From a virus (Duplodnaviria > Caudoviricetes): a stretch of DNA of 64,000 nucleotides. A model generated the notes under the pieces. It had not been told where the DNA came from and did no database searches. It saw only the letters and a program-made list of their open reading frames with translations. Position 1 is the first letter of the stretch. The number at the start of each line of letters is the position of its first letter. Positions 13,169 to 26,953 of the stretch are shown here, one piece after another. The stretch covers positions 49,741 through 113,740 of IMG/VR virus record IMGVR_UViG_2940228231_000002; one strand, 5' to 3'. The translations under genes and the position numbers were made by a program.

Positions 13169-13242
13169 AGCGGTGTTGAGAAGTGGTATCTCATGGGACT
13201 CATTATCCCAAATCGGGTGTTCGACTCACCCCACCGCAACCA
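13169..13242 (+). tRNA. tRNA-Met(CAT), initiator-like
   Basis: Cloverleaf; anticodon arm TGGGA-CTCATTA-TCCCA; 1:72 mismatch; TTCGA T-loop; encoded CCA. Confidence 0.85.
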
Positions 13243-13422
13243 TTACTCGTCTACCATGTTGTAGAATGAGAAATCGGGCTTCGTAATGCGATTTCCGAAT
13301 TTTGTAAAGTCAACATTAAATAAGGCATTAAAAGATAATATCTTTATTATAGAGAGCACCTGTGCTGTCCGTATTTATAGGCTGTTGAGAGTTCAGCTTG
13401 CTTTAGCCTAGAAGTTTAATAC

Positions 13423-13499
13423 GCTGGTATAGTTCAGTTAGGTAGAATACTTGTTTTGTACTCAAGATGTCTGAGGTTCAAATCCTCATGCCAGCTCCA
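13423..13499 (+). tRNA. tRNA-Thr(TGT)
   Basis: Acceptor GCTGGTA/TGCCAGC; loop TT-TGT-AC; U discriminator; CCA. Confidence 0.88.
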
Positions 13500-13545
13500 A
13501 AATAAAACGATGATGGAGGCAGAGCCTTCTACCCTTTCCCCATTT

Positions 13546-13576
13546 GTTGAAGTAGCTCAATGGTGGAGCAACTGAC
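13546..13576 (+). pseudogene. 5' half of a tRNA (acceptor, D-arm, start of the anticodon stem)
   Basis: GTTGAAG TA GCTC AATGGTG GAGC A ACTGAC; no matching 3' half found downstream. Confidence 0.5.
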
Positions 13577-14218
13577 AAACTGGCAGAAGAACAGTCGGCA
13601 GGATTTCTCCTAAGCCTGTATCCAAAACGGAGATATAAGTACCTATAAAAATATATACTAAAGTAACTCAGTGCAAACATCACTAGTTAGGTGGTGCTGA
13701 GGCATACTGGTTGAGTCAGTTATGTAAAAGACGGATACGTCTTTTCTGTAGCTGCGCGTCTTTAAGCGATTTCTGACGTGTAGGCAAAACCGAAACTCAA
13801 GGTATGGCACTGCGTTTACTGCAATCAAACGCACGAGATGAATGGGCAACGCAATAGAAAGAGTGGTTAAAAGCCACTCCGAATCCAAGTTAGGTTTTAG
13901 TTGGTGACTGTAGCAAACCTTGGAAATACCAACAAGTTGTTTCCCAGTGAAAGAGAGAAATCTCTGTATAACATTCGTCGAAGTACGAGTAGGGTGGGGA
14001 TTTTATAATATTGCTTTATCAAACGAATATAAGCACAAAATAAAATTTTCTGAATTAATCCTGAAAGTTGAGGGTAAGCAACCCCTCCAAAGTTTAGCTC
14101 TTTGATGGGCGTGGTAAAGAAGTCACTAGGGTAGCTCCCTTAGGCTCAGACTTTATCTCCTTTGTGGCAGAATATGGTTGAAAGTAAGCAACAGCAGGCT
14201 GAAAAGACACTTTCTGTA
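13577..14218 (+). ncRNA. Large structured ncRNA, GOLLD/ROOL-like (boundaries approximate)
   Basis: ~640 nt between tRNAs with no credible ORF and many helices (GAGTGGTT/AGCCACTC, GTTGGT/ACCAAC, CCAAG/CTTGG, GAGGGT/ACCCTC). GOLLD and ROOL RNAs are known from phage tRNA clusters. Confidence 0.55.
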
Positions 14219-14241
14219 TATATTTTTATAGGTACTTTTGA

Positions 14242-14316
14242 AGCAGGGTGGAGCAGTGGTAGCTAGTCAGGTTCATACCCTGAAAGTCGCAGGTTCGAGT
14301 CCTGCCCCTGCAACCA
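14242..14316 (+). tRNA. tRNA-Met(CAT), initiator-like
   Basis: TCAGG-TTCATAC-CCTGA arm; 1:72 mismatch; CCA. Confidence 0.9.
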
Positions 14317-14378
14317 ACACCTTTCTACCAAGTGTAGAGAGGGTCTGTCGAAGAACTTCTAGTCCTTCGACCTTTATG

Positions 14379-14455
14379 GGAGAGGTAGCTCAGATGGAAG
14401 AGAAAAACTAGTATCACTAGGTGTGTCGTAGGTTCGAATCCCACCCTCTCCGCCA
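14379..14455 (+). tRNA. Atypical tRNA-like element (nominal anticodon ATC)
   Basis: Good acceptor GGAGAGG/CCTCTCC, T-arm and CCA, but an aberrant anticodon arm (CTAGT-ATC-ACTAG). Confidence 0.55.
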
Positions 14456-14483
14456 GAAGATATATTGTGATTTCATTTAGCCT

Positions 14484-14577
<94 letters not shown>

Positions 14578-14584
14578 ATCATGT

Positions 14585-14660
14585 AGGGGTATAGCTCAGT
14601 TGGTAGAGCTGTGGTCTCCAAAACCACGTGCCGTGGGTTCAAGTCCTACTGCCCTTGCCA
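14585..14660 (+). tRNA. tRNA-Trp(CCA)
   Basis: GTGGT-CTCCAAA-ACCAC; canonical cloverleaf; CCA. Confidence 0.93.
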
Positions 14661-14816
14661 CTTAGTAATATATTTGGAATAAAATCCACAATGGCTCCAG
14701 CTCAGACTAACGCCAAATAAGGAGTTCCTTGTAGGTGGTGCATGGACAACAACCACTCACGCATATGGGAGTATAACCCTTTTAGTCGGGGGAAAAGACC
14801 GTAAGCCCATAATTTT

Positions 14817-14841
14817 GCCAGACATCTGTCTGGCTTTTTTT
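14817..14841 (+). terminator. Intrinsic terminator
   Basis: GCCAGACA-TC-TGTCTGGC followed by a T-run. Confidence 0.7.
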
Positions 14842-14917
14842 GGTTCTGTAGTGTAAATGGTTAACACATCAGGGTTCATCCTGAAAAGTCCGAGTTCGAT
14901 CCTCGGCGGAATCACCA
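14842..14917 (+). tRNA. tRNA-Glu(TTC)-like with a 6-nt anticodon loop
   Basis: Glu-type acceptor GGTTCTG/CGGAATC; arm TCAGG-GTTCAT-CCTGA; CCA. Confidence 0.65.
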
Positions 14918-14945: not shown

Positions 14946-15833
14946 ATGATTAACTATTATTGCCCTGATTTTTTCATGGGAATAAAAACATATTTACATC
15001 TTTGCGAAATGAAGCAAGTAGTCCCTACTGTGTTTTATGATGACGTTAATATTAAAGCCGTGTTTGGTAGTTTTCCAAACATGACTTGGAATGGTGGCGG
15101 GACTTTCTTTGGCCCGATGCTCGCAGATGTAAATGAGATTCGTAATGTATTTTCCGTCTATAAAAAATTGAATATCAAACTTCAATTAACAATGACCAAT
15201 GCACTCTTGGAAAAAGAAGATTGCTATGATAGATATGGAAATACCGTACTGCGAATTATAAGTGAAGAATATAGTGATGATTTTGAGATACTAGTCTCTT
15301 CCCCTATTTTAGAGGAATACATAAGGGAGAAATACCCGTCACTAAAAATTAGCAGAAGTATTATTGCAGCAAAAGATGATTGCGACTATAGTGAGGCGTT
15401 GAAGAAATACGAAAATGTGGTTATGCCAATTCGTCATTTGGAGAATTTTGAGCTATTGAATTCTTTTTCGCCAGAAGAAAAACGACACATAGAGCTATTA
15501 TGCAATGACCCCTGCCCTCGTGATTGTCCTAGACTATATACTCACTATCCAGAGTATGCGAAAGCTACACTGTTAATGGAGACACTGAACCCAAGTTTAA
15601 ACCCAGCGTTGAATTGCAATAATCATGTGCCACTATCTGAGAAGTCGCTGAGTGCGAACTCAAGAGTGACGTATGATGAAATCAAAGAAGTTTATGTCCC
15701 TATGGGATTTAGTGAATTCAAACTATCTGGCCGTGGAAATGTGGTCAATATAATTACTAGTATAGTGCCATACTTTATTAAACCTGAATATCAAGTCGGG
15801 GCTATCAAGCACCTGCTGATGAATAATCAGTAA
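14946..15833 (+). CDS. Peptidase U32-family-like Fe-S protein (paralog 1)
   Basis: WNGG motif; ELLCNDPCPRDC Cys cluster; C-terminal FKLSGR (U32 xKxEGR-like). Confidence 0.7.
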   Translation: MINYYCPDFFMGIKTYLHLCEMKQVVPTVFYDDVNIKAVFGSFPNMTWNGGGTFFGPMLADVNEIRNVFSVYKKLNIKLQLTMTNALLEKEDCYDRYGNTVLRIISEEYSDDFEILVSSPILEEYIREKYPSLKISRSIIAAKDDCDYSEALKKYENVVMPIRHLENFELLNSFSPEEKRHIELLCNDPCPRDCPRLYTHYPEYAKATLLMETLNPSLNPALNCNNHVPLSEKSLSANSRVTYDEIKEVYVPMGFSEFKLSGRGNVVNIITSIVPYFIKPEYQVGAIKHLLMNNQ

Positions 15834-15846
15834 AGGTTGGTGCACG

Positions 15847-17916
15847 ATGAATAAATTATTTGAAAGCCCGCCTAATGTCAGAGAGGGAAAAACTAAAGAA
15901 GAGCTACTTGAAATGTTAGAAGGAGAATTCTGGAGAAATAAATATGGAGATATTCATAACGGATTTGATCTGGAGATTATTGTATCTAGTGGCTGTAATT
16001 TAGGATGTCGTGGTTGTGACCACTTCTCCCCCATTGCTAATGAATGGTTTGTTGACGTTGGCACTCTTAAAGAAGAACTTTTAATGCTAAAAGAAAGACT
16101 TCCTATGATTAAGAATGTTTTTCTAATTGGAGGAGAGCCACTGTTACACCCAAATTTTGTAGACGTGGCATGTTTAACACGTGACATTTTTCCAAATAGT
16201 GATGTAATTACATATACTAATGGACTGCTCATGAATAGTTTCAGTGAAGAGGATTATATTACTTTTTCAGAAAAACGCATCAGCTTCATCATGACAAGAT
16301 ATCAAGTTGGATTTGATTATGAAAAAGCCAGTGCAAATCTGGATAAATATAAGATTAACAACAACTACACACACACTAAGCTGATATTTGGTGGTTATAC
16401 AGTAAATCCTGAAGGCACCGAAGATCAAACTCAGTTTTATACGTGTACAAAAACACAGACACCAGTGCTATCGCTAAAAGAAGGAAAGATATATAAATGC
16501 CCTTTTAGTTGTTGCTCTGGGAATATTACAAACATACATGAAAAGATAGTTATTCCTGAAACAGAAAATGATTATTTGGATATTAGAGAAATAACTATAG
16601 AAAGATTAGACGCATTCTGTCACACTCCAAACGATAGATGCAAATATTGTGTCGAGTCAGGAAGTGGGTCTTGGCTGTGGCGACCTTATGATGGAGATGA
16701 GAATTCTTACTTGTATAGTTTGAAAGATTATTATCTTTATGATTATGATCAATACAATCTCTTGATCAATAACAAAGACTACGCAGATACTATTTTAGAC
16801 AATGAAGAATTGTCTGCAAAGCTAGATTATAAATTTCATGAAAATGTTAGTAGTAAAATAATCAAAAGATATAAGTCAAGTAAGATTGACATTATTGTCC
16901 CCTTCTATAATTTGACGAATGAGATTATCTTACAGTTAATGGATACGCTGGCAAGTCAAACAATTATAGATGATTGTGTTGTCTACATGATTAGTGACGG
17001 AGATCCACGAGAAGCTGATATTTATTCTGCTTTCGACAGGGAATTCATAAACTGTGTAATGCTAAAAAATGAGGTTCGTGGTGGCCCAGGTGTTGCCCGT
17101 AATAAAGCCTTGGAATGCTGTTACGGAGAGTATATTTACTTTCTCGATGCAGACGATAGGTTTGCAGATAGCGACTCTTTAGAGCGACTATATGAGTTTG
17201 CCAAAGATGGTCAATATGAAATTGTAACACATGAGGTTATTGTTGAAGATAAGCATCATGAGTCAAATTTAAGCGACGACAGAAATATAACAAGGAATTT
17301 CTATTTAGGAGATTTTATCAGAGAAAATAAAATTCTGTTTCCCCCACTGCATTTTGGAGAAGATGGTTATCTTGCTAACTTGGCTCAACATCATAAAGCA
17401 AGAGAGGGATTTATTCCTTATAAGGCATATGTCTATAATAAAAACATCAACAGCGAGAAAGCATGTCGTAATGACTACTCTGACTCGGATGTAATGATTT
17501 GTACAATGATAAATAATTATTGTTGGGCAATGGACATTCATAGTCGAGGACTTGCTCAGAGTGTTGAGGATTTTTATATTCCATTTCTTAGACAGCTTGG
17601 AGATGAGTCATTTATTCAGAGCGACTCAAAAGAGAAAACAACTCTTAATTTAGCAGTTGCTTTGTGGCTTGGCGGAAGACTATACAATGATGTTTTGGTG
17701 AAGCTACCAAGTGGCTTCAAATTAAATGAAAGCGATATCAATATAGTTAATGTTGTCGTTCTCAAGCAAATCGAAGACAATGATTACGTGTTTGAGTTGG
17801 ATGGGCGCACATCACACACCTTATCTTCACTTGAAAAGAAAATAATGTCTATTCTAATGAAAAAAGATAGTCTAATAGTAAAATCAGCAGTGGATTATTT
17901 GAAGGGGTGGTTGTAA
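15847..17916 (+). CDS. Radical SAM-glycosyltransferase family 2 fusion protein
   Basis: N-terminal CNLGCRGC and GGEPLLHP with Cys-rich auxiliary region; C-terminal GT2 motifs IDIIVPFYN, GGPGVARN, YIYFLDADD and GED. Confidence 0.88.
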   Translation: MNKLFESPPNVREGKTKEELLEMLEGEFWRNKYGDIHNGFDLEIIVSSGCNLGCRGCDHFSPIANEWFVDVGTLKEELLMLKERLPMIKNVFLIGGEPLLHPNFVDVACLTRDIFPNSDVITYTNGLLMNSFSEEDYITFSEKRISFIMTRYQVGFDYEKASANLDKYKINNNYTHTKLIFGGYTVNPEGTEDQTQFYTCTKTQTPVLSLKEGKIYKCPFSCCSGNITNIHEKIVIPETENDYLDIREITIERLDAFCHTPNDRCKYCVESGSGSWLWRPYDGDENSYLYSLKDYYLYDYDQYNLLINNKDYADTILDNEELSAKLDYKFHENVSSKIIKRYKSSKIDIIVPFYNLTNEIILQLMDTLASQTIIDDCVVYMISDGDPREADIYSAFDREFINCVMLKNEVRGGPGVARNKALECCYGEYIYFLDADDRFADSDSLERLYEFAKDGQYEIVTHEVIVEDKHHESNLSDDRNITRNFYLGDFIRENKILFPPLHFGEDGYLANLAQHHKAREGFIPYKAYVYNKNINSEKACRNDYSDSDVMICTMINNYCWAMDIHSRGLAQSVEDFYIPFLRQLGDESFIQSDSKEKTTLNLAVALWLGGRLYNDVLVKLPSGFKLNESDINIVNVVVLKQIEDNDYVFELDGRTSHTLSSLEKKIMSILMKKDSLIVKSAVDYLKGWL

Positions 17917-18468
17917 TTGGTAATTATATTAAAATCTAATCAAATGACATTGGCTGAAATTCCGTTGTATCACAATAGTTTTGATCAAATCACTTTTGGC
18001 GATGATAAGGTTAAGGAAATTAGCATAGTTCATGAGATTAAGAATTCTGACGAGAAGGCTTTGGAAGAGTTATATAAAAAAATATCTGCTGTAGATTATC
18101 ATTCAGTAAACGAAGTCATTGTTTACTATGACAAAGATACTTATTTTTCGTTCAACGCACAAGTTAAGGGAGTATATTATCGTGTGCTCAGCTACCTGCG
18201 GGCAAGAAATATGGAACTCAATGAGTATTTGACCATTAGATTCGCAGAGGATAATAAAGTCTGTATAGGCAGAGATGAGGATTTTGTGTTTTGCGATCAA
18301 GCAAAATGCAACTATTATAAAAACAACTATTGTAAAAAATATAATGCCGAGCTAGATACGGCAAATACATATAACAAACCAATGATATGCGAAAGCTGTT
18401 ATTTGGAAATGTGGCCAGAGATTGGTCGCACTTTTCTTGGTAATATGGAAGCAAAGTACAAGAAGTAA
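17917..18468 (+). CDS. Hypothetical protein with Cys-rich C-terminus
   Basis: C..C....C.......C...CESC; translationally coupled within the operon. Confidence 0.7.
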   Translation: MVIILKSNQMTLAEIPLYHNSFDQITFGDDKVKEISIVHEIKNSDEKALEELYKKISAVDYHSVNEVIVYYDKDTYFSFNAQVKGVYYRVLSYLRARNMELNEYLTIRFAEDNKVCIGRDEDFVFCDQAKCNYYKNNYCKKYNAELDTANTYNKPMICESCYLEMWPEIGRTFLGNMEAKYKK

Positions 18469-18487
18469 AATGAAAGGAAGTGGCGAT

Positions 18488-18847
18488 ATGGCGCAATACA
18501 TATTTAGATTTAAATCAGGCGAAGAAACACTAGAAAGCGTTCTAGAGGGAGAATATTCTTTTTCCATTAGACAGCAAGGGAAGGGTTCTGAGAGTTTTGT
18601 AATCATGGGTTATTATAAAGACTATGACGCAGTTGAATCTGGCGGTTTAAAAGTTTTATATAATGATTTTGAAGAAGATATGACAGATTTAGAAATCTCT
18701 CTAGTTGAAGCGGCTAAGGAAGTTGTTGTCTTTAGGAGACCTATTGTTGGCGTAACTTATTTTGAAACTGAAAACCTAGAGAATAATGAAAAAGGATTTG
18801 GAATGACTGAAGGAGACTCTCTCAAAGCATCAATAAGGATAGAATAA
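18488..18847 (+). CDS. Hypothetical acidic protein
   Basis: RBS before MAQYIF; abuts the next gene. Confidence 0.7.
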   Translation: MAQYIFRFKSGEETLESVLEGEYSFSIRQQGKGSESFVIMGYYKDYDAVESGGLKVLYNDFEEDMTDLEISLVEAAKEVVVFRRPIVGVTYFETENLENNEKGFGMTEGDSLKASIRIE

Positions 18848-18848
18848 A

Positions 18849-19355
18849 ATGGGATTAATTAAAGACAATAATACGTCATGGAGTGACATAAAAACACTGT
18901 ACACAAATCTTAACACTGCTAGAACTAAGTTTGGATTTGAGACAGCTACAGTTCCAGAAAAAGAAGCGGAAATTACGACTCCAACGGATATAACAGATAT
19001 TAAGTCTTTAATTGAAGCAATGACTACTAATTCGTATGTTGGCAGTACAGCATCGACTGAAAGTGTTATAGTTCCAGCAAGTGGTGATATTATGCAACCA
19101 ACTCCGTTTACGGAAATGGAAACGATTATTCAAAATGTAAATGATACTTGTGCACATAATGCGTCGTATTTTGCGGGGAACTATGCATACAATTCATCTT
19201 TCAACTCTAGCAACTATGGATATAACTCGACTTTCAATTCAAGTAATTATGGCTTCAATTCGTCTTTTAATTCTAATTGGAATTCAGGCAATTATAGTTT
19301 TAATTCGTCTTTTAATTCAAACTGGAACTCTGGCAACTATAGCTTCAGAAGATAG
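18849..19355 (+). CDS. Putative modification substrate: ~100-aa leader-like domain plus Asn/Ser/aromatic repeat tail
   Basis: C-terminus GNYAYNSSFNSS NYGYNSTFNSS NYGFNSSFNSNWNSG NYSFNSSFNSNWNSG NYSFRR; lies directly upstream of two radical SAM genes. Confidence 0.75.
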   Translation: MGLIKDNNTSWSDIKTLYTNLNTARTKFGFETATVPEKEAEITTPTDITDIKSLIEAMTTNSYVGSTASTESVIVPASGDIMQPTPFTEMETIIQNVNDTCAHNASYFAGNYAYNSSFNSSNYGYNSTFNSSNYGFNSSFNSNWNSGNYSFNSSFNSNWNSGNYSFRR

Positions 19356-19383
19356 AAAAATTGAAAAAAGGAGTATATAAAAA

Positions 19384-20838
19384 TTGAATAATGAACACAC
19401 AGATATTAGAAGGCTAACATTGTTAGCGGCCACTGGATGTAATTTGCAGTGCAAATACTGTGCGATAGCAAAAACAACTAATGAACACTCTAAAACCCTA
19501 TTTAGTGAAACAATCAAAGCACTAGATGATGGGACTTATTTAGAGAACACATTAAAATGTTTAGAGCGGCTTGGTGAGTCCCCATATAAAATCGAAGGAT
19601 TCGACATATGGGGGCAAGAACCTACCATGATTATTTCTCATGTTTCAAAGAACTGGGGAGATTGGTATGCTGCCTATCCAAATATCAAGTCAACATTCTT
19701 TTCTACAAACGGAATAGATATGGTTGACCAGATTTATGATTTTGTTGTTGCAGTAAATGAAGTGGCCACAAAAGAAATACAAATGGACTTTCAGGTTTCT
19801 TACGACGGAGCTTATGGCACCGAAAATGTTAGAGGCGGAGAAGGTTCCTCAATACTCAACAACTGTATTGAGTTGAATAAAAAGTTCAATCAGACTCACC
19901 TTCCAAATGTGAACGTGAGTTTTAATTTCCACGGAGTTGTGTCAAATGACCTAATTGAGTACTTAGATAACTTTGAAAAAATAGATGCCTACTTAAAAGA
20001 AATCGAAAGTTTTTTAAAGCAAGTTAGAGATACTAATATTAGTAAACATATCCGATGGAATGGAATCACATTACAGTACGAGAACGGAACAGATGTACAT
20101 GCTGAACAGGGAATCAGATTGGCTGACTTTGTGAGAAAGATAGAACATCTGAGACATGAAAACACTTATACGTTTTTCAATGATGGCGAGAGCTTTATCA
20201 TGGAGCTGTTAGGTGGGAGCATCTACATGCTTGAAGAGAAAATGAAGGAATATAACTCCCCTACTTTAGATGCTTATGTAAATGATGTACTTAACCGTAG
20301 TGATGTGGATTTGAACAGGAAGTACAAACAGGCGCCCTATTGTGGCCCCGCTAGATCTGAATTAAAAGTCATATATGATGGGACATTGGTTACTTGCCAG
20401 AACTCTATATATGACATTCAAATAGATAAGAGCACTTTAGAGAACACGGTGCGAGATGAAGCTCGCTGGGGTCAAATGACTCACGGGCACAGGATTAATT
20501 TCATTAATGATAGCGATGAAGATATTGAGAAGTATCTAAGTTTCATTGACAATACATTTAATGGCAGCGTGCAATATTTTATGATTGGCAATATTGCAAA
20601 TCTTATGTATTGCTTAGCTAAAATTGGTCAGATCTCCCCTTCCTATTTAACAGATATGGAAAAGCTCAAAAGACATGCTTTTATACTGTCAAATGTAAAC
20701 TGCTGCTACTACAACCTAGTGGTTAACTCAGGGTCGAATGTTATCCGTAATGCGAGCGAGATCAGATTGCTATGCAACGGAGTCTTAGACCTATATGAAG
20801 AGGCAGTGAATTTGAGACTTTTTAGAAACAAGGAGTAA
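19384..20838 (+). CDS. Radical SAM protein
   Basis: CNLQCKYC, WGQEPT, FSTNG, QVSYDG; C-terminal Cys (YCG...TCQ...NCCY). Confidence 0.9.
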   Translation: MNNEHTDIRRLTLLAATGCNLQCKYCAIAKTTNEHSKTLFSETIKALDDGTYLENTLKCLERLGESPYKIEGFDIWGQEPTMIISHVSKNWGDWYAAYPNIKSTFFSTNGIDMVDQIYDFVVAVNEVATKEIQMDFQVSYDGAYGTENVRGGEGSSILNNCIELNKKFNQTHLPNVNVSFNFHGVVSNDLIEYLDNFEKIDAYLKEIESFLKQVRDTNISKHIRWNGITLQYENGTDVHAEQGIRLADFVRKIEHLRHENTYTFFNDGESFIMELLGGSIYMLEEKMKEYNSPTLDAYVNDVLNRSDVDLNRKYKQAPYCGPARSELKVIYDGTLVTCQNSIYDIQIDKSTLENTVRDEARWGQMTHGHRINFINDSDEDIEKYLSFIDNTFNGSVQYFMIGNIANLMYCLAKIGQISPSYLTDMEKLKRHAFILSNVNCCYYNLVVNSGSNVIRNASEIRLLCNGVLDLYEEAVNLRLFRNKE

Positions 20839-20844
20839 TGATTT

Positions 20845-22260
20845 ATGACAAAAGGAAAATTCATCAATGATGAAAAGAAATTGATGGAATCGTATATAGA
20901 TAGTGAACTACTACCGTTGCCTATAGACAAGAACTCAATGCATATTAGCAAAAATATGTTAGAGTTGATTGTTAGACCAGAGTGCAACCAGAAGTGTGAA
21001 TACTGTTATATATATAAATATGGAACAGAGCTGTACCCTACTCGCTCTAATAAAGAAGAAACTTTGAAGAATATAGATATGATTTTAGACTATGTTTATA
21101 TGACAAGAAAAAATTTCTTCTATCAAATAGAAATCTTTGCTGGGGATCTATTTTATGACGACATTTACTTCGATATGCTAGACATATTTGAGAAATACTT
21201 TGGAGTGTTAAAGAAAAGATATGGATATCTATTTAGTCGCAGAGTTGCAATGGTAACACCATGCAATATGTCTTTCGTAGTAGAAAGTCCAGAAAAGGCT
21301 GATAGATTTATTGAATACCATAATAGATTCTTGAAGGATTATAATGTTAAATTGGCATTCTCTTGGTCTACAGACGGAATTTATTCCACAGATATTAGAG
21401 AAAAGGCAGAATTAAACGAAGAGTATTTTGATACTATATTTGAGTTCTGTAAAAGCATCGAGTCTGGATACCATCCAATGATCAGTGCGTATGGAATCGA
21501 CAACTTGAAAGATAACTACGATTGGTGGTTGTCTAAGCTCGAGCAGTTTGATTTGAGCAAGGGGCATGATTTCCAACCACCTATGTTGGAAGTTCGCAAT
21601 GGCGATGAATGGACTGATGAGGCGATTGACAAGTATTTAGATTTCTTGTCTTATGCTATGGAAAAAAGATTTGAACTATGTAATTATTCTGTTGATGCAC
21701 TTGCACAACACTTCTTTGATTACGATTCAGACGCCGAGTTAAAGAGAATGAATAACTACGATTTCTTAATTGTAGATGTGAAAAACCCAGATAGCCAAAG
21801 AACTGAGGCGATATCTTGCAGTATGCAACATACGATTCATTTTAATTGCACAAATTTATCTTTGTCTGTTTGCCATAGGACTACCTACCCAGAATTCACT
21901 GGGGCGTATTTTAAAACTGACGAGACAAATAGTCGCATTGTAGATATTGAACCTCATAATGTAAGTGGATATATCACACTTAGATGCATGGATATTTCCA
22001 AAGGCCCTATGTGCGTAGATTGTGAGATTCAAAATAATTGCTTGCACGGGTGCATTGGTGCTCAATATGAATACTCTGGGGAGATTATGCTACCTATCCC
22101 ATCTGTTTGTAATCTGTTTAAGAAGAAAGTTAAACATTTGGTTAAGCTATACAACGAATACGGATTAATTGATAGTGCAATAAAAAACAATTATCTACAG
22201 GGATATGGCAAAGAATTTTGGCTTGAAAAATCTAAAGAATTGGGGTACGAATATGCGTGA
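20845..22260 (+). CDS. Radical SAM/SPASM-domain protein
   Basis: CNQKCEYC, SWSTDG; SPASM-like SC...VCHR...CVDCEIQNNCLHGC...C. Confidence 0.9.
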   Translation: MTKGKFINDEKKLMESYIDSELLPLPIDKNSMHISKNMLELIVRPECNQKCEYCYIYKYGTELYPTRSNKEETLKNIDMILDYVYMTRKNFFYQIEIFAGDLFYDDIYFDMLDIFEKYFGVLKKRYGYLFSRRVAMVTPCNMSFVVESPEKADRFIEYHNRFLKDYNVKLAFSWSTDGIYSTDIREKAELNEEYFDTIFEFCKSIESGYHPMISAYGIDNLKDNYDWWLSKLEQFDLSKGHDFQPPMLEVRNGDEWTDEAIDKYLDFLSYAMEKRFELCNYSVDALAQHFFDYDSDAELKRMNNYDFLIVDVKNPDSQRTEAISCSMQHTIHFNCTNLSLSVCHRTTYPEFTGAYFKTDETNSRIVDIEPHNVSGYITLRCMDISKGPMCVDCEIQNNCLHGCIGAQYEYSGEIMLPIPSVCNLFKKKVKHLVKLYNEYGLIDSAIKNNYLQGYGKEFWLEKSKELGYEYA

Positions 22261-22648
22261 AAAAGATGATTTTATTAGTATCCTAAGAGAGATGGAAAAC
22301 TCTTTCGATGCTAGTAATATTGAAGACTATTACAATATAATTGGAACTATTGGAATGCTTATGGCAAACAAAGAAGAAGATTCAGAGATTTGGGAACATA
22401 TTCTCTCTATCGTTGGAAAAGTTATGTCTACGAGTCATGTCGATAGTCCTAAAAAGAATAATGATATGGGGTTTACTCCAAGCACTAATGATGTGTTGTA
22501 TTATAGGCTCAACAACTTTAGTGATGAAAAAATGAAACAACAGGTGCAAAAATATGACGAACTATCGGACTCGCTAAAAAAGGTGATATCCTTTAGAATA
22601 GTTTGCCCTGACATATGCGAACCTAACTATGGAGTATTTTTAGATTAA
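22253..22648 (+). CDS. Hypothetical protein
   Basis: Overlaps the stop of the rSAM gene; CPDIC near the C-terminus. Confidence 0.7.
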   Translation: MREKDDFISILREMENSFDASNIEDYYNIIGTIGMLMANKEEDSEIWEHILSIVGKVMSTSHVDSPKKNNDMGFTPSTNDVLYYRLNNFSDEKMKQQVQKYDELSDSLKKVISFRIVCPDICEPNYGVFLD

Positions 22649-22649
22649 G

Positions 22650-23522
22650 ATGATCTATTTCACACTTCCAAGCCTATACAATAACTTTGAGATAAATGAC
22701 TTCTTTGTTAATTTATCAAATTATTATAGTCATTTCTTTAAGTATAAAGTCGTGTTCTCTAGTGTGACTGGGAACTTCCCTTTCTGCTATTGGAACGGCG
22801 GGTATAACAACAATATCGACGGGCATAATATTGCAACATATGAGGACTTTGTTTCCTGTGCGGAAGAATACAGTGCCCCTATCAGATTTAATTGTGCAAA
22901 TGTTTGCTTGCAAGAAAATGACGTTAATGATACGATGGCTAACTTAATACTGTCGGTAAACCAAACTGGTTCAAATAGTATTGAGTTATCTAATTTGGAA
23001 ATATATGAAACACTCAAAAAGAAATATCCTGAGTATACCTATGTCTTCTCAAAAGAAGCGGACTTAGTATTTCCAATGACACCAGAGATTATAAATATAA
23101 TCGACAAAGAGTGCGATTTCAAGTTAATCTCTTTGCCAGAAGATAAAACAACTGATATGAGTTTTTTAGAAGCGATAAGCAATCCATCTAAAATAGAACT
23201 GTCAGTCAACACAGTATGCAACAAGAGTTGCGTAAAATATAAGCAGTGCAAAATGCACGAACACCAATCTCAGTATGACTTTTCAGAAGTTAACAACTAC
23301 AAACGATGTCAAGAGCACAGCTCTTATGCAGAACGTGCTCCTATGATCACAATGGATGATATCGTCGCTAAGTATTTACCAAAAGGTTTTAATCACTTTA
23401 CATTGGCTGAGGTCATCTCAGACAGCCGTGATAATCTAATAAACTTCTTGGTGAATTATTTTATTAAGGATGAAAACAAAGCTGAGGTCTATGAGATGAT
23501 TATGAAAAAAGGAAAAATTTAA
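22650..23522 (+). CDS. Peptidase U32-family-like Fe-S protein (paralog 2, degenerate C-terminal motif)
   Basis: FCYWNGG, ELSVNTVCNKSC and GFNHF align with paralogs 1 and 3. Confidence 0.65.
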   Translation: MIYFTLPSLYNNFEINDFFVNLSNYYSHFFKYKVVFSSVTGNFPFCYWNGGYNNNIDGHNIATYEDFVSCAEEYSAPIRFNCANVCLQENDVNDTMANLILSVNQTGSNSIELSNLEIYETLKKKYPEYTYVFSKEADLVFPMTPEIINIIDKECDFKLISLPEDKTTDMSFLEAISNPSKIELSVNTVCNKSCVKYKQCKMHEHQSQYDFSEVNNYKRCQEHSSYAERAPMITMDDIVAKYLPKGFNHFTLAEVISDSRDNLINFLVNYFIKDENKAEVYEMIMKKGKI

Positions 23523-23523
23523 T

Positions 23524-24396
23524 ATGATTAAATACGCCATTCCTGGCATGTGGGAATTGAGAGATTTGAATTTCAAATATTTGAATCTTATGAGAACACA
23601 TCCAGAGTTCTTCTATGAAGATATAGAAGTTGAGGTGGTATATGGGAATCCCCAATTCTGTATTTGGGACGGTGGCAGAATTTTTCAGAAGTATGAATTC
23701 GCTACATTAGAAAAAATCAATCACACAGTTGGAGTTTACAATGAAGCATTTAATCTACCAGTGAGATACATATTCACGAACTGCAAGTTAGAGCCTGTTC
23801 ATTATCAGGATAGGTTTGGTAATTTGCTCATGGAGGTTGCCCACAGCGGAAAGAATGATGTAGTTGTTGCTGATGACGATTTTTGTGATTTTCTAAGTTC
23901 AAAATATCCTAACTACAGATATATATCCTCAACTACTAAATGTATTGAAGATGAAGAATTAGCAAAAAAAGAATTAAATAAAGATAGATATGGTCTTGTG
24001 TGTCTTGACTATAATCTAAATAGAAAAATGGACTTTCTAAAGTCACTAAATGACAAGGAGAAAGCAAAGACAGAACTTTTAATAAACGCAATCTGCCCCC
24101 CAGGGTGTCAGCATAGAAAAGAGCACTACTACCTAAATAGTATGTGTTCTTTGTCTTATGGGAAGAAATACACTATGGAGCACTGCTCTATCAAGACTAA
24201 TATAACAGACCCACAAGCGAGAAAGCACTACATGTCTTACGAGACAATTAAAAATGTTTATGCTCCAATGGGGTTTGAGCATTTTAAGATTGAGGGGCGT
24301 ACCTTGAGTTTATTAGAGACTATACTGAGCTATTGCTACTTTATGGTAAAGCCAGAGTATCATGACCAAGTTGTCATCCTGTCTTTATTGGAATGA
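23524..24396 (+). CDS. Peptidase U32-family-like Fe-S protein (paralog 3)
   Basis: CIWDGGR, ELLINAICPPGC, GFEHFKIEGR. Confidence 0.75.
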   Translation: MIKYAIPGMWELRDLNFKYLNLMRTHPEFFYEDIEVEVVYGNPQFCIWDGGRIFQKYEFATLEKINHTVGVYNEAFNLPVRYIFTNCKLEPVHYQDRFGNLLMEVAHSGKNDVVVADDDFCDFLSSKYPNYRYISSTTKCIEDEELAKKELNKDRYGLVCLDYNLNRKMDFLKSLNDKEKAKTELLINAICPPGCQHRKEHYYLNSMCSLSYGKKYTMEHCSIKTNITDPQARKHYMSYETIKNVYAPMGFEHFKIEGRTLSLLETILSYCYFMVKPEYHDQVVILSLLE

Positions 24397-24399
24397 GAT

Positions 24400-25047
24400 A
24401 TGCAAAAAATACTTACGATTGACTTTGATGTGGTTATGGCACCGAGTATAGACACCTATAATAATCTAATTCCTGGAGCCAAATGGGAAGAATTAAACAA
24501 GATGCCAATGATGAAAAATCTACAGGCTGACTATATTCATTACCAAAGACTAACAAAGTTGGTGCTATCCTTATCAAAGCAGATGCCTCGTGAAGATATA
24601 TTCTTCATAGAAAATCATGGAAAGATAGTTGACTTAGTAGAGCACGGTGACGACATAGGTTTAATCAACATCGATCATCACCACGATATTAAATATCCGA
24701 AAAACAAAGTGCCTGAAGGTATATGCACTTGTGGTAATTGGGTGTCAGAATTGCTGACCAATAGTCGTAGTGTTGGACATCTTTGGATTAACAACCCCAC
24801 ATCTAAAATGCCAGATGAAGATGTTTCAGGAAACTATATTTTTGAACATGCTCTGCTTGAAGATTACGACCTACAGAAGATTGGAGTTCCAGACAAAATG
24901 TTTCTCTGTCTATCAGAGCCTTGGATTCCACCACAATATAGACCACTGTTCTTTTTGTGGGTTGATATGCTGAGCGTAGAGTTTGACCATGAATATTTAG
25001 TGGACTTCTCTATGCCAAGAAATGAAGGTGTTGTATATGAAAAATAA
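24400..25047 (+). CDS. UPF0489-family protein (putative metallo-hydrolase)
   Basis: LTIDFD, ENH, INIDHHHD, CGNW and LCLS.PW motifs. Confidence 0.7.
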   Translation: MQKILTIDFDVVMAPSIDTYNNLIPGAKWEELNKMPMMKNLQADYIHYQRLTKLVLSLSKQMPREDIFFIENHGKIVDLVEHGDDIGLINIDHHHDIKYPKNKVPEGICTCGNWVSELLTNSRSVGHLWINNPTSKMPDEDVSGNYIFEHALLEDYDLQKIGVPDKMFLCLSEPWIPPQYRPLFFLWVDMLSVEFDHEYLVDFSMPRNEGVVYEK

Positions 25048-25840
25048 AACACTTCTAGTATCAAGAGAACATCGGTCTGAGAATACCATTGTCAGATGTG
25101 GGAAGAATAATCAAGTTGAGTTTGGAGGAAACACTCCTCAGATAATTGCAGGGCCTTGTGCTGTTGAGTCTAGAGAACAAATACTGCGAATAGCAAGGAA
25201 TGTGCAAAAGTGCGGAGCCACACTATTAAGAGGTGGAGCTTTTAAGCCAAGAACCTCTCCCTACTCTTTTCAAGGACTAGGAGAATTAGGTCTGCAATAT
25301 TTACTAGAAGCAAAAGAACAAACTGGACTACCTGTAGTTTCTGAAATAATGGATGTATCACAAATAGATCTATTTGAAAATGTAGACATATTACAAGTTG
25401 GTGCACGGAGTATGCAAAACTTCCAATTATTAAAATCACTTGGACAGTTGAATAAGCCAATTCTACTCAAGCGAGGGTTTCAAAATACAGTAGACGAGTT
25501 TTTGCTATGTGCTGAATATTTAATGTCTCACGGAAATAGAAAGATAATTTTATGCGAAAGAGGAATCAGGAGCTTTGACCCGCTGATGCCTTTCTCCTTA
25601 GATATTAGTGTTGTTCCATTGCTAAAAGAAAAGACGCACTTACCAATAATTGTAGACCCAAGCCACGCAACTGCAAATAGTAAATTAGTTGTGCCAATGG
25701 CTAGGGCTGCTCTGCTCGTTGGAGCTGATGGTGTTATGGTAGAAACACATGATAAACCAGAAGATGCTCTATGTGACGGAGACAATGCTATTGGATATGA
25801 AGAATTGAAATCAATAACTATGAATAAACGGGAGACGTAA
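25037..25840 (+). CDS. aroF: DAHP synthase (3-deoxy-7-phosphoheptulonate synthase), type I-beta, catalytic barrel only
   Basis: IAGPCAVES, RGGAFKPRTSPYSFQG, QVGAR, LLKRG, LCERG, DPSHA and ALCDG. Confidence 0.93.
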   Translation: MKNKTLLVSREHRSENTIVRCGKNNQVEFGGNTPQIIAGPCAVESREQILRIARNVQKCGATLLRGGAFKPRTSPYSFQGLGELGLQYLLEAKEQTGLPVVSEIMDVSQIDLFENVDILQVGARSMQNFQLLKSLGQLNKPILLKRGFQNTVDEFLLCAEYLMSHGNRKIILCERGIRSFDPLMPFSLDISVVPLLKEKTHLPIIVDPSHATANSKLVVPMARAALLVGADGVMVETHDKPEDALCDGDNAIGYEELKSITMNKRET

Positions 25841-25853
25841 CACTCCCGTTTTT
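25825..25853 (+). terminator. Intrinsic terminator closing the modification island
   Basis: AAACGGGAG...CTCCCGTTT followed by a T-run. Confidence 0.7.
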
Positions 25854-25891
25854 CAATTGGATAAAAAGAGAAAAGGAGTGATTCTACAGCT

Positions 25892-26953
25892 ATGAAACCA
25901 AAGGTTGCCACCAGGAACACACCTGAAGATAAAATGTTTACTTGCACAATGTGTGGCAAATCATATGAAAACCCAGAGCGTAGATTTTTTAAGACTAAAA
26001 GCAAATTATATGAAAAAAACGACATGTATTATTGTGTATGTAGATCATGTTTAGAGGAGAAGTTTGAGGAGTTTAAAAAAAGATATGACGAACGTACAGC
26101 AATGCTTGTTATGTGTCATTATCTAGATGTTCCCTTCTACTATTCTCTATACGACAGTGTAATTAAAAACAACGACAAGTTTACAATTGGATTGTATTTC
26201 CGTCAAATGAATACCAAGCAATTTTATTCTAAGACGTTTGTAAACACTTTAGTCGATAAGAAAGAGCTTGGTATCGATACTGAAAAATATGAAGTTATCA
26301 AAGAAGAGAAATGGTCTGTGAGTGATACCAAGACTAAAAATAATGTAATTGAAACCATAGGCTACGACCCATTTGAAGGATATGACGAAAACCAAAGGAA
26401 GTTCTTGTTTACCAACATCGCTGGATACTTAGGTGATGATGGAATTGATGAGGATAACTATAAGATTTCTCAAATCATTCAATTGGTAAATAACAACTAT
26501 CAGATATCACAAATAGACATGATGATTCCTAGATTGAATACATCAACTCACTTAGATGATATCAAGTCATTAAATAAACTAAAAAAAGACCTTGTTGATA
26601 GTAACGATAAGATTGCAAAACAAAATGGAATCTCTGTTAATAACAGAAAAGACCAAGAAGTCGGCAAGTCTACCCTCACACACCTAATGAAGAAACTGAG
26701 AGAATTAGACTTTGATGATGCCGAGGAGAATTATTATAATCAACTACAAAGTGCTGGCAGTCAATGGGCAGCAAATATGTCTTTTAAGTCAATCATGGAA
26801 CATGGATTCTTTGATGAAAACGACCGTGAAGAAGTGTTTGAAACGCAACGTAATCTAATAGAAAAATTACAAAAGCAAGTTGATGACACAAGTGAAGAAA
26901 ATCGTCTATTAAAACTTGAAAATATTGAACTTAAAGAGGCGGTGAAATCATGA
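25892..26953 (+). CDS. Putative terminase small subunit (N-terminal Zn finger)
   Basis: CTMC...CRSC; overlaps the terminase large subunit; SPbeta-like position. Confidence 0.65.
   Translation: MKPKVATRNTPEDKMFTCTMCGKSYENPERRFFKTKSKLYEKNDMYYCVCRSCLEEKFEEFKKRYDERTAMLVMCHYLDVPFYYSLYDSVIKNNDKFTIGLYFRQMNTKQFYSKTFVNTLVDKKELGIDTEKYEVIKEEKWSVSDTKTKNNVIETIGYDPFEGYDENQRKFLFTNIAGYLGDDGIDEDNYKISQIIQLVNNNYQISQIDMMIPRLNTSTHLDDIKSLNKLKKDLVDSNDKIAKQNGISVNNRKDQEVGKSTLTHLMKKLRELDFDDAEENYYNQLQSAGSQWAANMSFKSIMEHGFFDENDREEVFETQRNLIEKLQKQVDDTSEENRLLKLENIELKEAVKS

Follow-up and report, generated by a model that had tools for sequence, protein, structure and literature searches.

The 64,000-nucleotide stretch of DNA analyzed here (hereinafter the window; positions 49,741 to 113,740 of IMG/VR record IMGVR_UViG_2940228231_000002) lies in what its gene content suggests is a large prophage of the SPbeta type in a Bacillota host. 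At 18849..19355 it carries a gene for a 168-residue protein with an ordinary head and a strongly repetitive tail, followed on the same strand by two genes for radical S-adenosylmethionine (rSAM) enzymes, here called rSAM A and rSAM B. The features central to what follows are, in window coordinates:

18849..19355, plus strand: candidate substrate protein, 168 aa, the whole open reading frame (ORF) from its ATG start through the stop, ending ...NYSFRR
18849..19148, plus strand: conserved N-domain, residues 1-100 (alignments A1 and A7; AlphaFold predicted local distance difference test score, pLDDT, 80-91)
19146..19148, plus strand: junction Cys100 (NDT-C-AHNAS), the only Cys in the protein
19149..19352, plus strand: repeat tail, residues 101-168, with ten [FYW]NS, five NY-x-[YF] and a C-terminal RR (pLDDT <40)
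19384..20838, plus strand: rSAM A, 484 aa, with CNLQCKYC at residues 19-26 (alignments A3 and A8); present in 51/53 loci
20845..22260, plus strand: rSAM B, 471 aa, with CNQKCEYC at residues 47-54 and a seven-Cys SPASM region (alignments A2, A9 and A10)

The first of these genes is preceded by AAGGA, a Shine-Dalgarno-like element, and its residues 1-100 are of ordinary composition, being rich in T, I, S and E; by eye its N-terminus (MGLIKDNNTSW...) shows no hydrophobic stretch, no signal-peptide predictor having been run. The next 67 residues (101-167) include 18 N, 18 S, 8 Y, 8 F, 5 G and 2 W, with Asn and Ser together making up 54% and Phe, Tyr and Trp 27%. The tail has one His and no Cys beyond Cys100, and it holds 9 of the 12 N-x-S/T sequons of the protein. 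The triplet [FYW]NS occurs ten times, at residues 114, 118, 125, 129, 136, 140, 144, 151, 155 and 159, and NY five times, at residues 111, 122, 133, 148 and 163. When the tail's residues were shuffled 20,000 times, [FYW]NS came up 1.3 +/- 1.1 times and never as often as ten. An earlier note on this DNA, made from the letters alone, had picked out these ten and five motifs behind about 100 ordinary residues, together with 11- and 15-residue units that differ by synonymous codons, and both observations hold at the positions given above. Tandem Repeats Finder recovers the units as a period of 33 nucleotides in 2.9 copies (19179-19273, 75% match) and one of 45 nucleotides in 2.5 copies (19236-19347, 82% match), respectively. 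Across the units F (TTC/TTT 4:4), N (AAC/AAT 7:11) and S (five codons) are each spelled by different synonymous codons, so it is the amino acid sequence of the repeat that is maintained.

The protein has no match in Pfam, NCBIfam, PHROGs or PADLOC, and scans for promoters and terminators returned site counts not above those of shuffled sequence. The gene and the rSAM pair are present in one copy each in the 2.17-Mb bacterial genome to which the window belongs. Because the tail alphabet resembles that of AAY mutagenesis, we considered a diversity-generating retroelement target and rejected it: the tail DNA has no second copy in the 2.17-Mb genome that could be a template repeat, 18 of the 68 codons of the tail have A or G in third position, and no reverse transcriptase was matched by Pfam among the cassette genes at 14946-24396 and 24400-28845, the rest of the genome not having been searched.

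The 168-aa protein and its homologs are the fixed partner of the rSAM pair, the two being nearly obligatory neighbors whichever of them is taken as the starting point. Going forward from substrate homologs, five loci were informative, two more contigs being too short to tell. At four (P0005, P0009, P0007 and P0067) the gene is followed on the same strand by one for 461-495 aa and then one for 475-528 aa, the homologs of rSAM A and B, while at the fifth (P0049) the contig stops within a clear rSAM A ortholog. In the reverse direction, rSAM B as the query recovered 45 IMG/VR loci on phage contigs, mostly of 80-196 kb. An rSAM A homolog accompanies it in 44 of the 45, the remaining one having no upstream DNA. 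Among the 44 with upstream DNA, a gene for the N-domain ends at the rSAM A start in 38, and in two further loci it lies 3-4 kb downstream. The pattern is repeated, where the contig allows, in 12 loci from metagenome-assembled genomes of Clostridia (Oscillospiraceae, Lachnospiraceae, Roseburia and Clostridium), in five of which the N-domain gene again ends at the rSAM A start. The homologs thus mostly keep rSAM neighbors, the trait on which the earlier note had staked its proposal of a precursor. Most relatives reside on phage contigs of 100-200 kb among replication or lysis genes, and elsewhere among genes of nucleotide metabolism.

Two contigs carry two separate rSAM A-B pairs each (L013/L031 on IMGVR_UViG_3300045988_177309 and L014/L019 on IMGVR_UViG_3300045988_175607); in both, one pair is without an upstream N-domain gene and the other has such a gene 3-4 kb past rSAM B. 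Many relatives come from phages that read TAG as Gln (L001-L003, L007-L009, L012, L054, L101 and L102), whose substrate and rSAM genes translate only with TAG=Q; the prophage in the window uses the standard code.

A word-based search recovered 15 homologs of the protein at 33-39% identity, all with the same two-part plan. When 1.84 billion cluster representatives (clusters at 50% identity) were searched with an N-domain profile, 577 clusters matched at E<=1e-3, of which 262 did so at E<=1e-10, the proteins being up to 413 aa long; among the 150 matches listed, the domain occupies residues 1 to about 100 in 147 and starts near 115-128 in three. The tails behind it are highly variable, and the division into a conserved head and a variable tail that the earlier note had looked for in homologs is therefore borne out. 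The head is marked by the motifs W-SDI..LY..LNT.R and VP..G..I and is predicted by AlphaFold, from a 20-sequence alignment, to form three helices (residues 11-27, 45-60 and 85-99; pLDDT 80-91). The tail falls below pLDDT 40 in the best model, the five models being alike in overall score. Foldseek found nothing for the head in the PDB at E<=1e-3, VIA-align (wide) returned generic helical bundles alone (Z<=7.1), and the best BFVD matches are uncharacterized Caudovirales proteins. In the Atlas, a viral cluster with PF27846 in 53% of its members has a head that superposes on the N-domain (TM 0.63); the Pfam and NCBIfam copies used gave no match, and this lead is not confirmed.

Statistics on the tails were taken from 128 family representatives. 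Their commonest residues are S (16.6%), N (14.4%), G (12.1%), F (9.6%) and T (8.1%), with a median F+Y+W content of 18%; at least three [FYW]-x-[S/N] occur in 68% of them and Cys in 94.5%, and NGT and NGS rank among the commonest tripeptides. Tail length ranges over 31-308 residues among the profile representatives and reaches about 370 in full-length relatives found via rSAM B, the largest family substrate having 474 aa. The repeat units differ widely: the closest relative, L054, has FGSNYGYDAAD three times and then WNSGFYG three times, with nearly no sequons, distant relatives use W/C-S-Q-G, C/H-S-N-x or S-N-G-T-x pentads, and L037 has Cys-containing repeats of 10-12 residues. What is constant across the family is the head, a low-complexity N/S/G matrix and evenly spaced aromatic, Cys or His residues, and not the literal triplet. 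Among 12 near-identical relatives of 413 aa, column identity is 95.5% in the head vs 88% in the tail, where the best-kept residues are C, W, R, F, G and Y. A junction Cys equivalent to Cys100 is found in 99 of the 128 representatives, with the consensus (N/V/I)(K/T/V)-C-(R/A/P)(N/F/H)(D/N)(A/S). Not remarked on in the earlier note, this Cys might serve for processing, hold the first cross-link or bind a cluster during catalysis. Within the nearest clade (window 19344-19352; P0003, P0004, P0005 and P0025) the tails end in at least two Arg (SFRR, SVRR, SVRSRR, SVRGRRR, VTIRR), and other clades have conserved C-terminal strands of their own (...YTVEGVDF, ...VDIYHARATIG). These differing ends suggest clade-specific C-terminal signals.

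The two rSAM enzymes are distant paralogs (hhalign 90%, 19% identity). Over 17 sequences of rSAM A the CX3CX2C motif is conserved at 90% or more, and Cys 320 and 338, which form a twitch-like CX12GX4C, and Cys 441 are invariant; Cys464 is invariant among four sequences (A3) and is not listed among seventeen (A8). In rSAM B the CX3CX2C and the SPASM Cys 325, 343, 390, 393, 399, 403 and 422 are invariant over 17 and over 28 sequences. Going by these cysteine sets, rSAM A would carry one twitch-type auxiliary cluster and rSAM B, as a full SPASM enzyme, two. The best PDB profile match of rSAM B is CteB (5wgg, E 3.6e-4), with anSME (4k37) also among the best solved relatives of the two enzymes. Its Atlas neighbors form virus-dominated clusters of unnamed rSAM/SPASM proteins, and at 90% identity the family comprises more than 200 clusters, nearly all unnamed.

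An NCBIfam scan of 17 relatives each of rSAM A and B (34 family members) recurrently matched peptide or protein maturases only, all far below cut-off: PapB (in 17/17), nif11-type, QhpD, CbpB, SCIFF, anSME, YhhB, GrrM, XyeB, FxsB, DynA, WgkB, GggB, CXXX-repeat, HxsB and HxsC. The SPASM model TIGR04085 matches 16/17 rSAM B relatives. These results support, at the level of sequence, a place for both enzymes in the SPASM/twitch peptide-maturase group. For the triceptide models (XyeB, GrrM/OscB, FxsB, YhhB, AmcB) window rSAM B scores 14.3 bits with XyeB vs a cut-off of 450 and 10.4 with YhhB vs 445, the relatives falling below cut-off too. The DynA model NF041298 does not match the window enzymes and matches 6/17 B and 12/17 A relatives below cut-off (best 6.9e-10 and 1e-07). 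HxsB (TIGR03978) and HxsC (TIGR03977) do not match the window enzymes at E<=1; below cut-off, HxsB models match 9/17 B and 6/17 A relatives and HxsC 6/17 A relatives. The CXXX-repeat model TIGR04115 matches 5/17 B and 7/17 A relatives, again below cut-off.

The block around these genes, immediately upstream of the terminase and structural genes in the window, contains further conserved and accessory members:

14946..15833, plus strand: predicted U32-fold Fe-S protein, paralog 1 (alignment A4)
15847..17916, plus strand: fusion of rSAM and family 2 glycosyltransferase (GT2) domains, 689 aa, accessory (Pfam Radical_SAM 8e-11, Glycos_transf_2 1.7e-17); in 7/53 loci and L054
17917..18468, plus strand: p183, with a Cys-rich C-terminus, accessory; homologs in 11/53 loci and L054
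18470..18847, plus strand: small ORF p125 (~125 aa), its stop 1 nt before the substrate ATG
22205..22648, plus strand: small ORF p147, overlapping the rSAM B 3' end; homologs in the closest relatives only
22650..23522, plus strand: predicted U32-fold Fe-S protein, paralog 2 (aligned with its paralogs)
23524..24396, plus strand: predicted U32-fold Fe-S protein, paralog 3 (modelled; AlphaFold pLDDT 90.5, predicted template-modelling score 0.90)
24400..25047, plus strand: p215, with an HHHD motif, accessory; homologs in 10 loci, no Pfam match
25022..25840, plus strand: DAHP synthase, the last enzyme gene of the block (Pfam DAHP_synth_1, 1.7e-72)

Homologs of the 290-aa paralogs are found in 37/53 loci, on the same strand and usually 1-3 kb behind rSAM B (a few up to ~7 kb), and hence they are counted in the core of the cassette, which consists of the candidate substrate protein, rSAM A, rSAM B and one or more putative U32-fold Fe-S proteins. 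The constant rSAM pair, which the earlier note had treated by itself, is accordingly not the only conserved partner of the protein. The model of paralog 3 displays the U32 fold: its only Foldseek match in the PDB at E<=1e-3 is 5d88, the U32 peptidase Mk0906 (E 1.7e-6, probability 1.00, TM 0.56/0.64). C191, C195 and C221 are invariant and His201 nearly invariant in the family, the three Cys being candidate ligands of a 4Fe-4S cluster. Pfam PF01136 fails to match the three window paralogs and matches 6/15 relatives weakly (best E 4.3e-4).

Known U32 enzymes (RlhA, TrhP, UbiU/UbiV) hydroxylate RNA or quinones without O2 and require prephenate (PMC5727448). The 290-aa proteins share with them a predicted barrel fold, conserved Cys and co-located prephenate-pathway genes, and differ in that a protein, in place of RNA or a quinone, would be the substrate and in that the window paralogs miss PF01136. 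Besides the DAHP synthase of the window, a chorismate mutase (CM_2) takes its place in 5 relative loci, and a Na/sulfate-citrate-type transporter is found in 9. Chorismate-pathway genes or the transporter lie within a few kb in unrelated phages (window 25022-25840; L067:3782-4045; L004:19645-20606; L015; L033). The recurrence of the chorismate-pathway genes is circumstantial, fitting a supply of prephenate to the U32-fold proteins.

YcaO and ThiF are hallmark peptide-backbone modifiers. A YcaO gene occurs in 12/68 loci, in L067 directly upstream of the substrate gene (Pfam 1.7e-30), and ThiF in L007 and L008. The recruitment of such enzymes beside Cys/Ser/Thr-rich tails offers independent support for the tail as a substrate of modification. 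The slot of p125 is filled by ORFs of 107-152 aa in 11 loci or contigs (L001, L004, L007, L012, L015, L033, L066, L068, L102, L103 and L104); these show no detectable mutual homology in an alignment of nine loci and match no family, and p125 is at most a candidate recognition element. At the p147 position elsewhere are ORFs of 82-233 aa. With seven Cys in its C-terminal stretch (C..C...C......C ... C..C), p183 may be a small protein that binds a metal or an Fe-S cluster. No immunity gene is conserved in the cassette.

In the reading that we favor, the phage carries a protein-maturation cassette whose dedicated substrate is the 168-aa product, and in which two rSAM enzymes rewrite the tail into rings and U32-fold proteins hydroxylate it; for this reading as a whole we would put the probability at roughly 0.55. 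Its parts differ in strength. We are rather confident that the tail is the substrate of the rSAM enzymes. That the chemistry is side-chain cross-linking of the triceptide/daropeptide type is a tentative proposal, to which we give somewhat less than even odds, and hydroxylation of the protein by the U32-fold proteins is more doubtful still. The earlier note had described a leader with a multi-core substrate. A leader-like domain and an rSAM substrate agree with the conserved head and the gene linkage, and with tails of up to ~370 residues "modified protein" is the more apt term than "multi-core peptide".

In the scheme that we envisage, the three-helix N-domain (residues 1-100) would be a constant handle and the disordered tail (101-168) the part that is chemically rewritten, with rSAM A and B abstracting hydrogen from tail residues. 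The evenly spaced aromatic side chains would most likely be joined to nearby Asn/Ser carbons, Cys or His standing at the equivalent positions in relatives, and the floppy tail would become a chain of small rings: triceptide-like rings on aromatic-x-S/N and, in the clade of the window, perhaps darobactin-like fused rings on NY-x-[YF]-N-S. We rank cross-linking first among possible chemistries because of the spaced aromatic, Cys or His residues, the N/S two positions away and the maturase-like enzymes. The U32-fold Fe-S proteins would then probably add oxygen without O2, the DAHP synthase (chorismate mutase in relatives) would supply the prephenate donor, and the rSAM-GT2 fusion may add a sugar in the lineage of the window.

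Triceptides are aromatic1-X2-X3 cyclophanes with a link from the aromatic ring to C-beta, His being included among the ring residues (PMC11499958), and dynobactin A is WNSNVHSYRF (PMC10125368); the earlier note's statements on aromatic-X-X motifs and on the WNSN start of dynobactin agree with these sources. The definition fits the pattern of the window tail. The cassette resembles the triceptide and daropeptide systems (XyeB, GrrM/OscB, FxsB, YhhB, HaaB and HtkB; DarE and DynA) in its run of aromatic1-X2-X3 and its SPASM rSAMs (PMC11499958, PMC10125368). The W-N-S with which dynobactin A starts is also present in the window tail (PMC10125368), and the aromatic-x-aromatic-x-X spacing of the fused rings of darobactin is that of the NY-x-[YF]-N-S units. 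Unlike those systems, the "leader" here is a folded domain of 100 aa, the family substrate reaches 474 aa, two rSAMs replace one, and the cassette is viral, has no RiPP (a peptide made on ribosomes and modified post-translationally) recognition element, protease or exporter that we could find, and reaches none of the family models. The ranthipeptide/SCIFF and sulfatase maturases (CteB 5wgg, PapB, anSME 4k37) are the best PDB and NCBIfam relatives and have the seven-Cys SPASM in common, and the Cys-rich tails of many relatives could take thioethers; in contrast, the window tail has no Cys past Cys100 and the scores are far under the cut-offs. The CXXX-repeat rSAM target system (TIGR04115; PF27846, tSAM_targ_Cxxx_rpt) differs in that the window tail has no CXXX repeats and, as far as the literature that we found shows, is itself a bioinformatic definition only.

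Several points weigh against the favored reading. The cross-linking chemistry is drawn from gene neighborhood and residue pattern. Neither rSAM reaches a curated cut-off of the named cyclophane, sactipeptide or ranthipeptide maturase families, and the NCBIfam matches of the window enzymes (E ~1e-2 to 1e-4) fall on the CX3CX2C or SPASM segments. The N-termini of the rSAMs, with CX3CX2C starting from residue 19 and 47, offer too little length to house a RiPP recognition element, nothing resembling PqqD was detected, and neither a protease nor an exporter is conserved in the cassette. The exact F/Y/W-N-S triplet, which the earlier note had singled out, is not conserved across the family: at least three [FYW]-N-S are present in only 15% of the family tails, vs the 68% given above for [FYW]-x-[S/N], and L054 uses other units. 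In some relatives aromatics are scarce (F+Y+W 4-5%), for which a single chemistry across the whole family may be a poor fit. Finally, the U32 assignment of the 290-aa family is drawn from a predicted fold, and its hhalign probability against genuine U32 proteins is 4.5-9.8% (4.5% against 19 of them).

Prophages often carry defense genes, and the element here is a prophage: the cassette might instead mature an effector through one or a few site-specific small changes plus processing, with no series of rings, and the mature effector could act in superinfection exclusion. The closest characterized analogue in terms of cassette logic would be the HXS antiphage system HxsD-HxsB-HxsC-HxsA (Li et al., Nat Commun 2026; PMC13128918), which combines paired rSAMs, small partners and an X-x-Ser repeat protein that gains +8 Da on SHRSS and undergoes N-terminal processing, and which is 99.7% restricted to Pseudomonadota (PMC13128918). 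Both have two adjacent rSAM maturases, small partner ORFs (p125 and p147, flanking the substrate gene and rSAM B without detectable homology to anything, stand where an HxsD counterpart might be sought) and a protein, not a short peptide, with a folded domain and tandem X-x-Ser repeats. The below-cut-off HxsB/HxsC matches of the rSAM relatives point the same way, and one such special site could be the junction Cys, single and nearly universal. However, the window rSAMs lack any Hxs match at E<=1, PADLOC finds nothing, and the gene order differs. The HxsA repeats are basic His-x-Ser, whereas those of the window are aromatic-Asn-Ser. HxsA has a peptidoglycan-binding domain and is exported, whereas no such domain was found in the window protein, whose N-domain has no Pfam match and whose N-terminus lacks a hydrophobic stretch by the visual check described above. 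HXS sits in Pseudomonadota chromosomes, whereas the window cassette belongs to Bacillota phages and has U32 partners, most of its relatives being on the large phage contigs among replication or lysis genes and many of them TAG-recoded. On balance we consider an effector of this kind improbable, though it is the alternative to be taken most seriously. A sacrificial scaffold is less probable again. PQQ and mycofactocin are built by SPASM rSAMs out of aromatic residues in peptides, and the mycofactocin pathway also uses a GT2; by analogy with PqqA/PqqE and MftA/MftC, the repeats would be many short cores from which a small molecule or cofactor is excised after cross-linking and hydroxylation, and this compound, in place of the protein, would be the product. 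The rSAM-GT2 fusion does weakly match MftF (E 0.0038), and several loci have DAHP synthase, chorismate mutase and the Na/sulfate-citrate-type transporter. The cassette conserves no peptidase, though, a single defined small product is hard to square with tails that vary so much in motif and in length, and the conserved 100-aa folded head along with the clade-specific C-terminal end motifs suggests a protein product.

Two further alternatives seem to us very improbable, to about the same degree. The tail might self-assemble unmodified, by an Asn ladder, beta-solenoid or amyloid, as part of a virion or matrix, with the rSAMs acting elsewhere. Its composition is indeed like that of N-rich prion-like and solenoid repeats, the Cys-containing repeats of the L037 type recall insect antifreeze solenoids, and the window block adjoins the terminase and structural genes. 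Yet AlphaFold predicts no repeat fold for the tail (pLDDT <40), which leaves the amyloid or beta-solenoid option raised by the earlier note unsupported, and the near-obligatory rSAM adjacency in both search directions, the resemblance of the rSAMs to peptide maturases only, the lack of a PHROG structural family match and the location of the cassette among nucleotide-metabolism genes in other phages all argue against it. Alternatively, the tail might be mainly a sugar carrier: the rSAM-GT2 fusion would attach N- or O-linked sugars to the N-x-S/T sequons and to Ser, and the protein would act as a mucin-like coat or decoy. The 12 sequons, 9 of them in the tail, the fusion gene in the same block and the abundance of NGT and NGS in family tails accord with this, as does the glycopeptide sublancin of the related phage SPbeta (PMC6391423). 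Its locus, sunA-sunT-bdbA-sunS-bdbB (PMC6391423, PMC8270828), likewise places a ribosomal peptide and tailoring enzymes including a GT2 on an SPbeta-type temperate phage; sublancin is, however, an exported 37-aa glycocin with an immunity gene and no rSAM, features that are not seen in the window cassette. Against a glycoprotein, the fusion is found in 7/53 loci and L054 only, whereas the rSAM pair is constant, and the tail of L054, the closest relative, is nearly without sequons.

Bacteria are known to mature ribosomal peptides with radical-SAM enzymes, and one bacterial antiphage protein, that of HXS, was reported in 2026 to be rSAM-matured (PMC13128918). Phage-borne clusters for ribosomal peptides are also known, without rSAM, sublancin being an example (PMC6391423; bioRxiv 10.1101/2020.10.01.322628). 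In the literature on phage rSAM/RiPP systems, triceptides, YcaO, U32 with peptides and CXXX repeats we found no description of the present cassette and, as far as that literature shows, no studied case of virus-encoded rSAM maturation. We regard the cassette as a recurring, undescribed phage system in which a ribosomal product would be matured by rSAM enzymes, and new chemistry is a real prospect; the cassette is abundant, nearly always viral or prophage-borne, and resides in gut anaerobes. The pairing of rSAM, U32-fold and prephenate-pathway genes hints at a new class of substrate for O2-independent hydroxylases. A bolder and speculative extension is that large phages of gut Bacillota make virus-specific "RiPP-proteins", each with a constant helical head and a fast-evolving tail of up to ~370 residues that two rSAMs staple into linked side-chain macrocycles and U32 proteins hydroxylate, without oxygen, through a phage supply of prephenate. 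If true, it would mark the first case of a U32 enzyme with a protein substrate and of an rSAM-matured viral protein product. Should the chemistry be confirmed, the tails would offer hundreds of natural repeat designs attached to one recognition handle, a library of use in enzyme discovery and peptide stapling. Candidate roles for the product are a component of the virion or lysate, a part in host takeover, a means to exclude rivals or a toxin that lysis sets free, and as the window copy is in a prophage of a nearly complete genome, its role is directly testable.

The window corresponds to C1:75480-139479 of a 27-contig, 99%-complete bacterial genome of 2.17 Mb, in which contig C1 measures 428,749 bp. 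A low-GC block at about 25-160 kb of C1 (G+C 0.33-0.39 vs ~0.41) carries phage genes, including a tRNA cluster, TerL (Pfam TerL_ATPase) and long structural ORFs. A free megaphage of 428,749 bp was considered and rejected, this being a contig of a bacterial genome with a low-GC phage block. The TerL shows 27-29% identity to its counterparts in Thomasclavelia, Clostridium c-st and SPbeta-like Bacillus phages, which underlies the assignment to a large SPbeta-type prophage made at the outset. None of 50,697 deposited phage records matches the block, the substrate protein, rSAM A or rSAM B in DNA or protein; TerL alone has matches there, and distant ones. Two genes for large serine recombinases (ORFs of 530 and 549 aa; C1:204180-204629 and C1:298098-298541) lie beyond the low-GC block; either could be the prophage integrase. 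Just upstream of the cassette block, at window 13169-14917, ARAGORN calls a cluster of seven tRNA genes. One is a tRNA-Asp whose anticodon is called as ATC; another, tRNA-like and unassignable (14842-14917), has an anticodon call of two bases.

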